Virus record (IMG/VR): IMGVR_UViG_2565956631_000008
Length of the DNA: 17,914 bases
DNA from: a virus
Taxonomy: Duplodnaviria; Heunggongvirae; Uroviricota; Caudoviricetes
Direction: 5' to 3' (one strand)
Shown: positions 12,155-17,914 of the stretch, in pieces
How the letters are laid out: each line of letters begins with the position of its first letter
Numbering within the stretch: position 1 is the stretch's first letter
Program-made: the position numbers and the translations under genes
The notes under the pieces: model-generated
Told to the model about the DNA's origin: nothing
What the model saw: only the letters and a program-made list of their open reading frames with translations
The model's database searches: none

Positions 12155-12481
12155 TCAAGGACGTGACGGCGTAAAGATAAATTGTCTCTTCACTCCCTGA
12201 CAGGGGCGATTCTTTTCAAATCGCCATTTCGCCATGGCCTTCACCACTTCATCACGAAACAAATTATGAGGCTCTGAGCGGAGAAAAACGATCCGTGTCA
12301 CAGTCCCATCAGCACCAATATCGAACTTAACCTCAACCAGCCCCTTGATATAATTTGCTGCAGCATATTCCGGATATCGTGGATACACCGTCACTAATTG
12401 CCGGGGCTCATCAGCTTTTTGCTGCGAGCATCCCACTGCCAGGACAGATAACAGAAAAAGTAGTAAAAGGCGTCTTTTCAT
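12155..12481 (-). CDS. Lipoprotein with TonB C-terminal-domain-like fold
   Basis: Start at MKRRLLLLFLLSVLAVGCSQ (ATG 12479-12481, AGGA 7 nt upstream): signal peptide plus lipobox-like AVGC. Remainder ...VYPRYPEYAAANYIKGLVEVKFDIGADGTVTRIVFLRSEPHNLFRDEVVKAMAKWRFE aligns with the E. coli TonB C-terminal domain (YP..A.A..I.G.V.VKFD...DG.V...S.P...F..EV..AM..WR.EP). Confidence 0.7.
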   Translation of the reverse strand: MKRRLLLLFLLSVLAVGCSQQKADEPRQLVTVYPRYPEYAAANYIKGLVEVKFDIGADGTVTRIVFLRSEPHNLFRDEVVKAMAKWRFEKNRPCQGVKRQFIFTPSRP

Positions 12482-12791
12482 TTTTATTCCTACGGGTCTT
12501 ATTCTGACAATATATCCTGTGTTCCAGACTGCCACATCACCACATCCTGTGCCATTATCTGACTCACATTACATACATCGCATCGGGATACAGTAGTAGC
12601 ACTTTCTGTAATACAGCTTCCTGTTTCTTCCACCATCGCACCGGGATAAACCCGCGAATCATTAACGCGGTAAAAACCCGGTGTGCATCGTTTTTAATTA
12701 TCCCCGCACACTCGCGCAGAGGAGTCTCCCTGTCGGGCTGCGGTCTCTGTTAATGAGGGAATATAGCGACGATACGGCGCATCAACAAAAC

Positions 12792-14316: not shown

Positions 14317-15207
14317 CTAAATACGCACTTTAAGATAAGTCAGCCCCGGATGAAGCCAGTAAGCCGGCCCTTTTTTAAAGGGTGGAGTATTAAAATCACG
14401 AAGAAGAGCCTCCCGCACAATTGCATCCTTATCAGCACCACTGGCCAGCGCTTCAATCTCAGCGGCTACCTGAAGATATCCCATGCAACGGCCAACGCGC
14501 TTCATCAGCCCCTGCTTTTTATTGTTCTTCAGGTAATCAATGGCAAATTCAATGAGCTCCTCACTGTGCTGGTGCGATGGAGGTGTTACTTTCCCATTTT
14601 CTGAGATGGTTATTTTCCCAGCATCACCGGATACAACAAAGGATGGCCGGTTACACTCCCATTCCGGGTCACTGAAATTATCATTATGAATACTGAAACA
14701 CTCTGCGAGATTTCTGCTCATCACTTTCCGACAATAATCGTCAAACGCAGCAAACTGCTTTTCATCGCCAGAAGGCACCAATATCGACCATTTCTTATTC
14801 AGCTCAACGACGTAGCTCTCCAGTTTTTCAATACGTGATTCAACATCATCTTTTTCTGACCGCAGTGTTGACGGCGGCATCTTCAGAGAACAAGTAATTC
14901 TTCCCGGTAGCTTTCCTTTGTAGGTTATCAACACATCCTGCGCCTCTAAAATTACGGGGCGCTTTTCCGGCAACGGTTCGTTCCATTCACATAACCCGGC
15001 AGCAACATCCATGAAAAACTGCTTCGCCTGCTTTTTCGCCTCAGCTTCGTAAAACTCCAGCGTGGCACCTTCAGTACGGTCAAGACTAATCGCCACATCT
15101 GGCAACAACAGCGACGCTTGCCCGTCACCTTCCGACTTCACAGTAACAGTAACCTTATCCCCGTAATTATTTATCCCCTTAACAACCAGTTCATATTTTT
15201 TATTCAT
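14317..15207 (-). CDS. Uncharacterised 296-aa protein inserted between holin and endolysin
   Basis: Long ORF with ATG at 15205-15207, 4 nt after the holin stop, and a GGAGAG Shine-Dalgarno upstream; MNKKYELVVKGINNYGDKVTVTVKSEGDGQ.... No TM segment, signal peptide or catalytic motif I can recognise. GC looks lower by eye than the flanking late genes. Confidence 0.75.
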   Translation of the reverse strand: MNKKYELVVKGINNYGDKVTVTVKSEGDGQASLLLPDVAISLDRTEGATLEFYEAEAKKQAKQFFMDVAAGLCEWNEPLPEKRPVILEAQDVLITYKGKLPGRITCSLKMPPSTLRSEKDDVESRIEKLESYVVELNKKWSILVPSGDEKQFAAFDDYCRKVMSRNLAECFSIHNDNFSDPEWECNRPSFVVSGDAGKITISENGKVTPPSHQHSEELIEFAIDYLKNNKKQGLMKRVGRCMGYLQVAAEIEALASGADKDAIVREALLRDFNTPPFKKGPAYWLHPGLTYLKVRI

Positions 15208-15211
15208 CACT

Positions 15212-15427
15212 TTACTCTCCCCGCGCCGCCTTACGCCGGTCCTCTTTGATTTTGAAATACAGGTTAGTCAGATATGTCAGCAGCCCAAACAGCAGACTCC
15301 CCAGCACGCCTATTGCCGCCCACTGAGACGGGGAAACCCTGTCCAGCAACTGCAGGAACCAGTAGCCCGTTCCCACCGCTGACGTGGTGTATGACACACC
15401 TGTTGTGATTTTTTCCATCTGGTACAT
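15212..15427 (-). CDS. S: Class II pinholin (phage 21 S-like) with dual-start motif
   Basis: [71 protein letters not shown] (71 aa), near-identical to phage 21 S / E. coli EssD-type holins as recalled. Two in-frame Met codons (15427 and 15418) give antiholin and holin forms; GGGAG Shine-Dalgarno upstream. The ORF-track start at 15532 is an over-extension. Confidence 0.92.
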
Positions 15428-15459
15428 ACCCCGTCTCCCGTTATCCGGAAGCTGACAAC

Positions 15460-15491
15460 AATAAAAAAGCCACCAGTTAAGTACTGATGGC
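15460..15491 (-). terminator. Rho-independent terminator-like hairpin about 30 nt upstream of the holin start
   Basis: Minus strand: GCCATCAG-tacttaa-CTGGTGGC (8-bp stem with one G.U pair) followed by TTTTTTATTGTTG. Confidence 0.55.
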
Positions 15492-15734
15492 TCTGATAAC
15501 TCATGCAGGCGTCTCAGACGACCCACTGACACTACCGGTGAGTTTAACGATACCTTCCATTTGACTGGCTCACTTTTTATGATGATGCCGGTGCATTTAT
15601 CTCCAGCACCAGACTTTCTATCTCAACGCCATACGTTGCATTTTTGGTAATATCCGTCAGCGTCAGTGCATTTAGTCCCACTGCCAGACCGTCTTTTATG
15701 GCCTGGAATGCCGGGCCAGTACGATGACGTAGTA

Positions 15735-15938
15735 TCACTCCGGCTCAGTTGCACCACTGACCACCACATCACCTTCTGCTGCAATCGCCTGCATCAGGGT
15801 ATAAGGGGTTATGGCCACCGGACTACCAAACGGCTGCCAGCCCTCTTTCAGTTTATGTGTCAGCTTTTCCGCAAGATCTGACGGCGACGCCGCCCTGACA
15901 ACATCATAGTGTTTAAATGCCATGGTTCTTTCCACCAT
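15735..15938 (-). CDS. Small conserved prophage protein upstream of the holin (possibly DUF1737 family)
   Basis: 67-aa ORF MVERTMAFKHYDVVRAASPSDLAEKLTHKLKEGWQPFGSPVAITPYTLMQAIAAEGDVVVSG; the start may instead be the internal ATG at 15923 (MAFKHYD...). The family assignment is from memory and not verified. Confidence 0.55.
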   Translation of the reverse strand: MVERTMAFKHYDVVRAASPSDLAEKLTHKLKEGWQPFGSPVAITPYTLMQAIAAEGDVVVSGATEPE

Positions 15939-16183
15939 CTGAAAAATGATTCTTTAAAATACCTGACATGTAATACAGAAAAAACACAAAACCATACCTT
16001 AAATAAAAACCTCATCATCAAGCAGATATGCATGGATAAACTACAAGACGAGATATAAACCACCCTGCATTTAAATAAACAATAAACAACATCAGAAAAA
16101 TAATTCTGCTCTATGGTTTACAATCAAAAATATCATTTATACTTTTCAGAACATCACCAGCAAGGCATAAACAAGGAAACTAA

Positions 16184-16519
16184 ATGAAGTGGATTGTGAT
16201 TGATACAGTTATCCAGCCATCATGCGGAATATCTTTTTCAGTCATATGGAGTAAAATAAAATTAATAATCTGGTATCAATCGGATGCTTTCTTACCTCCT
16301 GAAAGTATATTTACACTGACTCACACAGGTATCATGCTCAATAACAAAGTGCTACCTGTAACCATTTACAACGTAGTACCATTCAATAAAACATTCTGGA
16401 ATTTAATCAAAAACAGCCAGGAATGCCCTACAAATACAGATAACGTATTGAATGAATGCTTTAATAACCGTTGCACTCTGCAAATATGTCCTTATGGGCT
16501 AAAACAACAAAGTCCATAA
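16184..16519 (+). CDS. Hypothetical 111-aa protein in an AT-rich island, opposite strand to the late operon
   Basis: 111 codons without a stop in clearly AT-rich DNA, which is unlikely by chance; AAGGAA Shine-Dalgarno 6 nt upstream of the [46 protein letters not shown]...[15 protein letters not shown]; no homolog recognised. Confidence 0.5.
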
Positions 16520-16539
16520 GGAGTTTACTCACATCTGAC

Positions 16540-16562
16540 AAAATCAATATAAACAGCCCCTC
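16540..16562. terminator. Perfect 9-bp GC-rich hairpin; likely terminator, mainly minus-strand
   Basis: CAGCCCCTC-cgga-GAGGGGCTG lies 20 nt after the stop of the plus-strand ORF. On the minus strand it is followed by TTTATATTGATTTTGT; on the plus strand there is no U-tract. Confidence 0.5.
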
Positions 16563-16770
16563 CGGAGAGGGGCTGGAGAGTGGCGCTATGTGCCATTGCA
16601 TGGTGCCGGGTGCCTCCCGGTGAATTCAGTACCAGCACCTGAATCCGCGATTATCCCATATACCTACTCGCTGATTGCCCCTCCGCACAGGGGGATTCAC
16701 CATGCCAGTTTCTTTTAACAAACTCCCCGCAAAACAGACAACTGTCAACCGTCTGAATTGTGAGACATTT

Positions 16771-16795
16771 AAAAAAAGGCCCGCAAAAGCGAGCC
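16771..16795 (-). terminator. Rho-independent terminator just downstream of the tRNA cluster
   Basis: Minus strand: GGCTCGC-tttt-GCGGGCC (one G.U pair) followed by TTTTTTTAAATG, starting about 15 nt after the 3' CCA of the last tRNA. Confidence 0.6.
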
Positions 16796-16809
16796 GGGAA
16801 AAATAAGTC

Positions 16810-16886
16810 TGGCGCGTTGTACTGGATTCGAACCAGTGACCGATTGCTTAGAAGGCAATTGCTCTGTCCGGTTGAGCTAACAACGC
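16810..16886 (-). tRNA. argO: tRNA-Arg, anticodon UCU (reads AGA)
   Basis: Hand-folded 77-nt cloverleaf from the minus strand: acceptor GCGTTGT/ACAACGC, D-stem GCTC/GAGC, anticodon stem ATTGC/GCAAT with loop CTTCTAA, T-arm ACTGG-TTCGAATC-CAGT, discriminator G, encoded CCA. Resembles E. coli argU. The gene symbol follows the ileZ-argN-argO order of Stx phages and is tentative. Confidence 0.8.
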
Positions 16887-16899
16887 AGGGTACAGATAA

Positions 16900-16976
16900 T
16901 GGACCGCCATCGAGGACTCGAACCCCGCGCAACCAGCTTCGAAGGCTGGCGCTCTATCCTGATGAGCTAATGGCGG
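16900..16976 (-). tRNA. argN: tRNA-Arg, anticodon UCG (reads CGA/CGG)
   Basis: Hand-folded cloverleaf: acceptor CCGCCAT/ATGGCGG, D-stem GCTC/GAGC, anticodon stem CCAGC/GCTGG with loop CTTCGAA, T-loop TTCGAGT, encoded CCA. The C1 start and U discriminator are unusual, so the ends may be off by a base. Gene symbol tentative. Confidence 0.7.
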
Positions 16977-16983
16977 TATGTGA

Positions 16984-17059
16984 TGGTGGCCCTTGCTGGA
17001 TTTGAACCAGCGACCTGGCGATTATGAGTCGCTCGCTCTCACCACTGAGCTAAAGGGCC
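16984..17059 (-). tRNA. ileZ: tRNA-Ile2 (anticodon CAU, presumably lysidine-modified; formally could be Met)
   Basis: 76 nt, GGCCCTTTAGCTCAGTGGTGAGAGCGAGCGACTCATAATCGCCAGGTCGCTGGTTCAAATCCAGCAAGGGCCACCA; roughly 90% identical by eye to E. coli ileX as recalled. Confidence 0.8.
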
Positions 17060-17068
17060 GGGAGCCGC

Positions 17069-17097
17069 ATAATAACGACGCGTAATTAATTCTTCAA
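17069..17097 (-). promoter_or_regulatory. Putative sigma70 promoter for the tRNA cluster
   Basis: Minus strand: TTGAAG (-35), 17-nt spacer, TATTAT (-10), ending 9 nt before the mature 5' end of the first tRNA. Confidence 0.4.
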
Positions 17098-17099
17098 TA

Positions 17100-17378
17100 T
17101 CATCCGTTCTGGCTGACTAAATCCTGTACTTCCCGAACCGTCTGCTCAAAACGTTCAGTCTCCAGCTCAACGCCAATTGCACGACGCCCGAGCGCCAGTG
17201 CCGCTTTCACTGTCGAACCCGACCCCATGAAAAAATCTGCAATCAGGTCACCCGGACGACTGCTAGCGCTGATTATCTGCTGCAGCATTTCTGCCGGTTT
17301 TTCGCACGGATGTTTCCCGGGATAGAACTGCACCGGTTTATGCGTCCAGACATCGGTATACGGCACCTGCGCCGTCAC
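17100..17378 (-). pseudogene. 5'-truncated remnant of a beta-class N6/N4 DNA methyltransferase (C-terminal ~90 aa only)
   Basis: ...KPVQFYPGKHPCEKPAEMLQQIISASSRPGDLIADFFMGSGSTVKAALALGRRAIGVELETERF... carries the HPxxKP and FxGxG(S/T) AdoMet-binding motifs of the N6_N4 MTase family. The upstream in-frame region runs straight into the tR' hairpin with no ATG, so the catalytic DPPY half is absent. Confidence 0.65.
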
Positions 17379-17433
17379 GCCAAAATACCGCCGCAGTCGG
17401 CATTCACAACCACCAGCGCATTTAACGTTCAGC

Positions 17434-17462
17434 CATAAAAAAACCCGCTCGCGGCGGGTTTA
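17434..17462 (-). terminator. tR'-like rho-independent terminator downstream of Q
   Basis: Minus strand: AAACCCGC-cgcga-GCGGGTTT (perfect 8-bp stem) followed by TTTTTTTATGG, about 70 nt downstream of the Q stop. Confidence 0.75.
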
Positions 17463-17529
17463 AGCTGTGTGGCGAAGTAACCACTCTTAACATACTGACA
17501 TACTTTTTGCGGACCGCACTAATCATTTT

Positions 17530-17910
17530 TTACTTTTTTAGCAGCCAGTCGTCCATCTCCAGTCTTACCCCCAGCACAGACAAACATCCGTCAATAAACC
17601 CTTCGGCTATCTGCATCTCAATTCGTATTGCTTTTTCGCTTTTCTTTCTCGTCCTGGCTATCTGTCTTTTTGATATTCGCAACAAATAATGAGCAATGAG
17701 AAGCGAATACTCCTCAGGTTTTTTCTGCTTCAGACGAGCAAGACAGTTTTCAATGATAAGTCCGTCATCATCGCAGCAGGCCGGACGTGGTTTAGTGGCA
17801 GATGGTAAAAGTCCTTTGAATCCGGCAGCGATCGGAGAATAGTCCACCCCGGTGTTACCACTTGCAGCCCATGCCCCCCAGCGTTCAAGAACCATCTGAA
17901 TATCACGCAT
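17530..17910 (-). CDS. Q: Late-gene antiterminator Q (Q21/QuuD-type)
   Basis: MRDIQMVLERWGAWAASGNTGVDYSPIAAGFKGLLPSATKPRPACCDDDGLIIENCLARLKQ...; recognised from memory as the E. coli prophage Q/QuuD family (about 127 aa). The start lies 4 nt from the window edge, so the RBS is not visible and a longer N-terminus cannot be excluded. Confidence 0.8.
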   Translation of the reverse strand: MRDIQMVLERWGAWAASGNTGVDYSPIAAGFKGLLPSATKPRPACCDDDGLIIENCLARLKQKKPEEYSLLIAHYLLRISKRQIARTRKKSEKAIRIEMQIAEGFIDGCLSVLGVRLEMDDWLLKK

Positions 17911-17914
17911 CAAC

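Follow-up and report, generated by a model that had tools for sequence, protein, structure and literature searches.

An AT-rich phage segment beside the stx position encodes a protein identical to the RssB anti-adaptor IraL

We analyzed a 17,914-nt stretch of Caudoviricetes phage DNA (IMG/VR record IMGVR_UViG_2565956631_000008), here called the window, around a segment at positions 15939-16562. Computed composition puts the G+C content of this island at 32.9%, versus ~50% in its flanks and 52% across the whole window. The island contains an intact plus-strand ORF (16184-16519) with an ATG start and 111 codons followed by TAA. When the island was shuffled 5000 times with dinucleotide content preserved, just 12 shuffles had an ATG ORF of at least 111 codons and the longest ORF averaged 49 codons, so a frame of this length is more than chance. 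Neighboring phage genes are all on the minus strand. To the right are the antiterminator Q gene, a DNA methylase remnant, and three tRNAs; leftward beyond the island are genes for a DUF1737 protein, a holin-containing ORF, a DUF1327/YdfR-family ORF, lysozyme, and Rz, and the terminase and head genes. An earlier sequence-only reading of this DNA had described the strongly AT-rich segment, the improbable 111-codon frame opposing late transcription, and the adjacent Q/tRNA module, all of it correctly. The features of the locus, from left to right, are:

15212-15532, minus strand: holin-containing ORF (context)
15577-15738, minus strand: 53-aa ORF after the DUF1737 gene (PHROGs match)
15735-15938, minus strand: DUF1737 gene, 67 aa, divergent neighbor of iraL (PF08410, 62 bits)
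15939-16150, no strand: AT-rich intergenic region from the DUF1737 gene (minus) to iraL (plus), G+C 0.32-0.34, containing the iraL promoter and upstream regulatory DNA
16117-16143, plus strand: sigma-70-type promoter, with -35 TTTACA at 16117-16122, a 15-bp spacer, and -10 TATACT at 16138-16143 (hexamers as read from the sequence)
16151-16183, plus strand: iraL 5' UTR, 33 nt, containing the Shine-Dalgarno sequence (start equivalent to the CFT073 5' RACE start)
16184-16519, plus strand: iraL CDS, RssB anti-adaptor, 111 aa plus TAA (111/111 identity to CFT073 IraL, NF007393 score, 8TWD alignment, dN/dS)
16545-16734, minus strand: predicted STnc100-family sRNA gene, convergent with iraL (Rfam RF02076, 133.6 bits, model positions 1-206 of 206)
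16554-16575, minus strand: 9-bp GC hairpin with a minus-strand T-run, predicted intrinsic terminator of STnc100 (terminator scan and Rfam model)
16778-16795, minus strand: terminator-like hairpin with a T7 run, directly following tRNA-Arg(tct); on its immediate left is the stx2AB position of Stx2 phages (~16767-16772)
16810-17059, minus strand: tRNA-Arg(tct), tRNA-Arg(tcg), and a tRNA with a CAT anticodon (Ile or Met in relatives), resembling the argO/argN/ileZ cluster of Stx-type phages
17100-17378, minus strand: DNA methylase C-terminal remnant (PF01555)
17530-17913, minus strand: antiterminator Q gene (PF06530, 177 bits)

The DUF1737 gene and the 53-aa ORF overlap by 4 nt (ATGA; 15577-15938, minus strand); PGAP treats DUF1737 as a truncated pseudogene, but a phage record lists two genes. 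In PHROGs, the 53-aa ORF hits much larger profiles at their C termini (positions 214-263 of 265 and 582-632 of 634). Further left, a 297-aa ORF (14317-15210, minus strand) carries a DUF1327/YdfR domain at its N terminus, and its match to phrog_1085 covers the whole profile (296 of 296 positions, 631 bits). It would seem to be a real long form, not a pseudogene; PGAP annotation of near-identical genomes gives a truncated "YdfR family protein, incomplete" and leaves ~590 bp unannotated. Downstream of Rz, a 126-aa ORF (12155-12535, minus strand) contains a TonB C-terminal domain (PF03544), and its annotations conflict: "TonB family protein" from PGAP in near-identical genomes versus "Rz-like spanin" in PHROGs. 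On the other side of the island, the methylase remnant (17100-17378, minus strand) consists of the 3'-terminal 92 codons of an N6/N4 DNA methylase gene (PF01555, profile positions 137-220). Stx2 phages carry a full methylase gene (~1059 bp) there, and phage PhiR49_2 has the same remnant at 99.7% identity. Just downstream of Q, at 17438-17510 (minus strand), where a short pR'-tR' transcript would be expected, we found a sub-threshold Rfam match to IsrK (18.3 bits, E=0.6) that is probably due to chance.

The protein encoded by the island is identical at 111 of 111 residues to IraL of the Escherichia coli CFT073 potB prophage (WP_000871291.1), whose locus tag is c1429 (PMC12890032). Around the gene, promoter included, the window and CFT073 differ by 11 mismatches over 801 aligned bases, with two synonymous and no non-synonymous changes in the CDS. 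IraL was described on the CFT073 potB island by Hryckowian et al. (mBio 2014), who gave it 58.9% amino acid identity to IraM (PMC4045071). The NCBIfam model NF007393 (IraM), a family covering the IraM/IraL/RssC anti-adaptors, scores 162 bits (E=4.7e-48), aligning ORF residues 1-110 to profile positions 1-113 of 114; this is above the curated cut-off of 121 bits and places the ORF in the anti-adaptor family. A Pfam scan of the 111-aa ORF matched no family. Assignment to IraL within the anti-adaptor family is based on sequence identity to the tested protein and on the shared genomic context and promoter, the latter three SNPs apart. The sequence-only reading had recognized no homolog and had proposed homology searches; megablast, the NCBIfam model, and the literature led to IraL and the IraM family, including K-12 IraM at 62% amino acid identity over 107 residues, gapless (70% at the nucleotide level). 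The ORF is almost certainly iraL, a prophage-borne moron encoding a small RssB anti-adaptor. Both the gene and its function have been known since 2014; the observation is real but ordinary and adds no new biology.

A published transcript end bears on the promoter. By 5' RACE of log-phase CFT073, iraL mRNA begins ACATCACCAGCAAGGCATAAACAAGGAAACCA (PMC4045071). This sequence maps to window positions 16151-16182 with a single mismatch (T for C at 16181), and the start site is therefore placed at 16151, giving a 5' UTR of 33 nt. The TATACT hexamer ends 7 nt upstream of this start, so what had been proposed from the letters as a possible TTTACA/TATACT promoter agrees with the published start of the identical CFT073 gene, upstream of which sigma-70 -10/-35 elements were also predicted (PMC4045071). 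Our sigma-70 consensus scan demands a spacer of 16-18 bp and did not call this pair because its spacer is 15 bp; the other calls of the scan in the island were no commoner than in shuffles. The Shine-Dalgarno sequence AAGGAA, also picked out in the sequence-only reading, is at 16173-16178, 5 nt ahead of the ATG.

In CFT073, a fragment from -100 to +33 sufficed for native iraL expression (PMC4045071). The upstream region is ~98% identical between the window and CFT073. Three SNPs separate them: A for T at 16123, next to the -35 element on its 3' side; A for G at 16150 (-1); and T for C at 16181, between the Shine-Dalgarno sequence and the ATG. The -35 and -10 hexamers as read here, the Shine-Dalgarno sequence, and the protein are unchanged.

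Convergent with iraL across a 25-nt gap is the putative STnc100 gene, whose covariance model score compares with an RF02076 gathering threshold of 47 bits. STnc100 is a known prophage sRNA family, of which the window copy is a predicted member; the gene was listed in none of the annotated records that we retrieved. It sits just past the tRNA cluster and that cluster's terminator-like hairpin, at the point where it follows stx2B in Stx2 phages. Published reports place STnc100 75 nt downstream of stx2 and detect it in STEC vesicles (PMC12370729), and a 2026 preprint links it to PasD.

The hairpin after iraL is a perfect 9-bp stem, CAGCCCCTC-cgga-GAGGGGCTG, at 16554-16575. It was correctly recognized from the sequence as a perfect GC stem, but it begins 34 nt past the iraL stop codon, not 20, and it belongs to STnc100 on the minus strand: it forms the terminal stem of the STnc100 Rfam model, and in the terminator scan it was called for the minus strand alone, where TTTATATTGATTTTG follows, the plus strand having no T-run. 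The right-hand limit first drawn for the island, 16562, cuts the hairpin in half. We predict that the hairpin is primarily the terminator of the convergent STnc100 sRNA, and it may also stop, mark, or stabilize the 3' end of iraL mRNA. Between iraL-type and Stx2-phage loci the hairpin stem and two internal GC-rich blocks are invariant, whereas the DNA between them diverges. Convergent pairing of an IraM-family gene with STnc100 is also found in CFT073, phage 640R1, and Stx2 phages.

The strong STnc100 match, with the hairpin as part of it, and the three SNPs near the iraL promoter and leader could be taken to mean that the ORF is silent in the window copy and that the sRNA is the functional element of the segment. 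For one iraL copy in JJ1886, a -35 point mutation makes expression uncertain (PMC4045071). We consider a silent ORF very unlikely here, given that the -35/-10 hexamers, the Shine-Dalgarno sequence, and the entire protein are intact, and that an identical 721-bp segment occurs in many complete E. coli genomes. The two elements are also separable, for PhiR49_2 has STnc100 without iraL, and iraL is kept as an addition. Purifying selection on iraL is evident from dN/dS values of 0.18 against IraM and 0.12-0.16 against the Stx-phage type.

Copies of the gene are widespread. Of 5426 complete E. coli genomes, 2223 gave a megablast match to the island, with the ORF annotated as "anti-adapter protein IraM" throughout. 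By blastn with the CDS alone, an iraL-type gene (at least 90% nucleotide identity) is present in ~1440 of these 5426 genomes, and all sampled iraL-type rows carry the annotation of this CDS. The exact IraL protein is found on at least 1000 contigs. Transcription and an intact frame in relatives, two points on which the sequence-only reading had said its ORF could fail, both came out in favor of a real gene, through the 5' RACE in CFT073 and the intact relatives.

That the gene is simply IraM, the Mg2+-starvation and PhoP/PhoQ-induced anti-adaptor of K-12 moved onto a prophage, is suggested by its names: PGAP and UniProt both call the protein "anti-adapter protein IraM", and the exact protein is UniProt IRAM_ECO27. 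Membership in the same NCBIfam family, NF007393, points the same way. Against this, identity to K-12 IraM is only 62%, and alignment of the island DNA with the K-12 iraM locus is meaningful in the CDS alone, the upstream and downstream flanks being unrelated AT-rich DNA. Simple orthology of the window gene with K-12 iraM was rejected on this unalignable flanking DNA. K-12-type IraM is defined by a class of at least 95% identity, an e14-adjacent locus, and a PhoP-dependent low-Mg2+ promoter, and the ORF falls outside this definition. The best blastn matches with the CDS form separate identity classes, ~1440 at 90% or more (iraL type), one type at ~78%, and ~3300 at ~71% (iraM type), and iraL and iraM matches did not overlap in the published survey (PMC4045071). 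IraL also works in unstressed log phase and differs from IraM in RssB binding (PMC4045071).

One further feature favoring IraM is a PhoP-box-like direct repeat, TGTTTATTGTTTATTTA, with one mismatch, at 16072-16088 (minus strand), 63-79 nt upstream of the iraL transcription start and conserved in CFT073. The search pattern, KGTTTA-N5-KGTTTA, had at least one match in 37 of 200 shuffles, so the repeat is not above chance. The pattern was also absent from a 12-kb K-12 stretch containing iraM and its upstream DNA and is therefore not diagnostic. The repeat may serve as a weak lead for Mg2+ regulation of iraL. Taken as an explanation of the locus, a relocated IraM is highly improbable, and iraL remains the identification that we prefer.

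There is next to no chance that the protein is a toxin, abortive-infection, or defense component, as the sequence-only reading had suggested: its position is a classic slot for toxin and defense morons, it is small and contains Cys, and its PHROGs family (phrog_4407) is labeled "unknown function", but a PADLOC-DB scan of the 111-aa protein found no defense-system or toxin family at E<=0.01, a different activity has been demonstrated for the identical protein, and toxicity is not mentioned in the portions of PMC4045071 that describe its cloning and expression in K-12 and CFT073. These candidates were rejected on the PADLOC result and the demonstrated activity.

The island had been placed exactly where Stx phages carry stx, and here the alignments disagree. 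In BLAST comparisons of two Stx2 phages with the window, the tRNA/methylase side (16772-17396) is ~94% identical and the stretch 15704-16767 is ~70-72% identical, with stx2AB sitting exactly between the two aligned blocks. This puts the stx slot at ~16767-16772, on the right-hand side of STnc100 and ~250 bp rightward of the iraL stop; its equivalent in Stx2 phages lies between the tRNAs and STnc100. Stx2 phages themselves carry an intact IraM-family gene (107 aa) that converges on stx2B, the two being separated by STnc100; its product is 73-75% identical to IraL (plus-strand coordinates 3012-3335 in L008, 2971-3294 in L004, and 4001-4324 in L009). Given that this paralogue adjoins stx2AB, stx and IraM-family cargoes co-occur and do not alternate. 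The window therefore has a version of the Stx2-phage module that lacks stx, and iraL neighbors the stx position and is not an alternative to stx.

The Stx2-phage gene is a third IraM-family paralogue. Stx2a and Stx2c phages from O157:H7 and further STEC have it intact, immediately following stx2B but on the other strand. Identity to IraM is 65%, with dN/dS of ~0.1, and a literature search on this paralogue found no functional study.

Alignment of the Q-to-lysis interval across relatives, a comparison proposed in the sequence-only reading, delimits the cargo. In phage PhiR49_2, Q, the tRNAs, and STnc100 are present, but window positions 15419-16596 (DUF1737, the 53-aa ORF, and iraL) have no equivalent, so this block is dispensable cargo. 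Its absence there, the deviant composition, and a promoter with a mapped start are features of a moron. The moron reading stands as regards an opposite-strand gene with its own promoter, between Q and the lysis genes of a lambdoid prophage; a terminator of its own is what the plus strand does not show, the T-run of the hairpin being on the minus strand.

Experimental evidence on IraL comes from CFT073, Shigella sonnei, and K-12. With iraL deleted, CFT073 and S. sonnei have less RpoS in log phase, and RpoS half-life falls from ~5 to ~2.5 min; the deletion is complemented by a single copy under the native promoter (-100 to +33), and plasmid-borne iraL raises RpoS in K-12 (PMC4045071). [quoted passage not shown] RssB binding and RpoS stabilization by the window copy may be expected from these published results on the identical CFT073 protein (PMC4045071). 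The broad label of lysogenic-conversion factor, also offered from sequence, is a fair description of a protein that in CFT073 stabilizes RpoS.

Structural information is available for IraM. In the crystal structure of IraM(1-78) with RssB (8TWD), a small beta-barrel bridges both RssB domains and the helical linker, and IraM blocks the RssB alpha4-beta5-alpha5 face needed by RpoS (PMC10844676). We judged membership in this fold from sequence, by residues 1-78 and the RssB-contact residues, and both support it. IraL residues 1-78 align gapless to 8TWD chain A (E=9e-32), and 11 of the 15 RssB-contact residues of IraM listed in PMC10844676 are identical in IraL (I4, I6, W22, K26, I42, C14, F18, W30, I61, Y62, and P66). 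The other four differ (T13S, L75I, H63N, and I64V), three conservatively, the exception being H63N. IraL keeps all cluster I contacts (receiver domain), and the changes are in clusters II and III (C-terminal domain, signaling helix, and linker). We infer that IraL has the IraM beta-barrel fold and would use much the same surface on the RssB receiver domain and linker. [quoted passage not shown] Because IraL bound only that domain, the IraM-RssB structure may misrepresent its C-terminal-domain contacts.

The protein has five Cys (C14, C81, C92, C97, and C102), in agreement with the several seen earlier, and all five are kept without exception in the IraL, IraM, and Stx-phage types. The C-terminal cysteines of IraL are spaced C-x10-C-x4-C-x4-C, in a tail that was removed for IraM crystallography and described as less conserved and flexible.

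We propose that iraL would be transcribed from its own sigma-70-type promoter in the island, against the late genes, and, having its own promoter, would be expressed in the lysogen. IraL would then bind RssB, the response-regulator-like adaptor through which RpoS reaches the ClpXP protease. Blocking RssB would let RpoS live longer and build up even in exponential growth, and its accumulation would strengthen the host's general stress response. IraL helps to explain why, unlike in K-12, RpoS stays high during growth in many pathogenic E. coli and Shigella, and the gene exemplifies a prophage moron that rewires a core host stress pathway, which is established knowledge. The practical value of this analysis is annotation hygiene, given the "IraM" label in PGAP and UniProt, the "unknown function" label of the PHROG, and the unlisted sRNA gene.

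H-NS binds AT-rich DNA and is reportedly a repressor of iraM. The composition of the AT-rich iraL promoter region, these properties of H-NS, and the induction of iraL mRNA by 1.6 log2 on a shift from 23 to 37 C (PMC12890032) together suggest that the region may be under H-NS-type silencing or thermoregulation. Later published work also found IraL levels to be higher in a fur mutant.

The 25-nt gap, the shared hairpin, and the conservation of the iraL-STnc100 pairing across modules could reflect functional coupling and not an accident of insertion, although we regard this as unlikely. Were it true, transcription of the sRNA or Q-dependent late read-through might run into the 3' end of iraL or pair with it as an antisense duplex. 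RpoS stabilization could then be tuned by prophage induction or by expression of the sRNA, or the reverse, linking phage state to the general stress response of the host.

Among known systems, the closest is CFT073 iraL on the potB island, with the same promoter, Shine-Dalgarno sequence, downstream STnc100, DUF1737, and holin genes (~94-99% nucleotide identity), the same order of tRNA, STnc100, iraL, DUF1737, and holin, the same location between the tRNAs and the lysis cassette, and the same opposite-strand orientation. CFT073 differs from the window in having another Q type with IS200C beside it and, between the tRNAs and STnc100, a DUF3927 gene; the window in turn has the two synonymous CDS changes and the three promoter/leader SNPs.

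K-12 IraM (YcgW/ElbA, b1160, beside e14) belongs to the same family as IraL and shares with it the 11 of 15 contacts, all five Cys, and the target RssB, as well as the outcome, RpoS stabilization, which is published for the identical CFT073 protein (PMC4045071). IraM is 107 aa long and lacks the QQSP tail of IraL; its flanks and promoter are unrelated, and there is no STnc100 near iraM. It is reported to respond to Mg2+ starvation and to contact both domains of RssB, in contrast to the log-phase, N-terminal-domain-only activity of IraL (PMC4045071).

The Stx2-phage paralogue (WP_001303568.1 and relatives) resembles iraL in having the same slot, an opposite-strand gene, AT-rich upstream DNA, and a convergent STnc100, in a module at ~70-72% nucleotide identity. 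It is, however, a distinct type (~78% nucleotide identity), located after stx2AB and before a nanS-p/yjhS-like esterase gene instead of DUF1737, and it is left unannotated in AP012536. Like classic lambdoid morons (lambda bor/lom, stxAB), iraL forms an independent unit of deviant composition in the late region, which would be expressed from the prophage and alter the host. Unlike them, it runs against late transcription and has at its 3' end, in place of a terminator belonging to it, a hairpin shared with, or taken from, the sRNA gene that converges on it.
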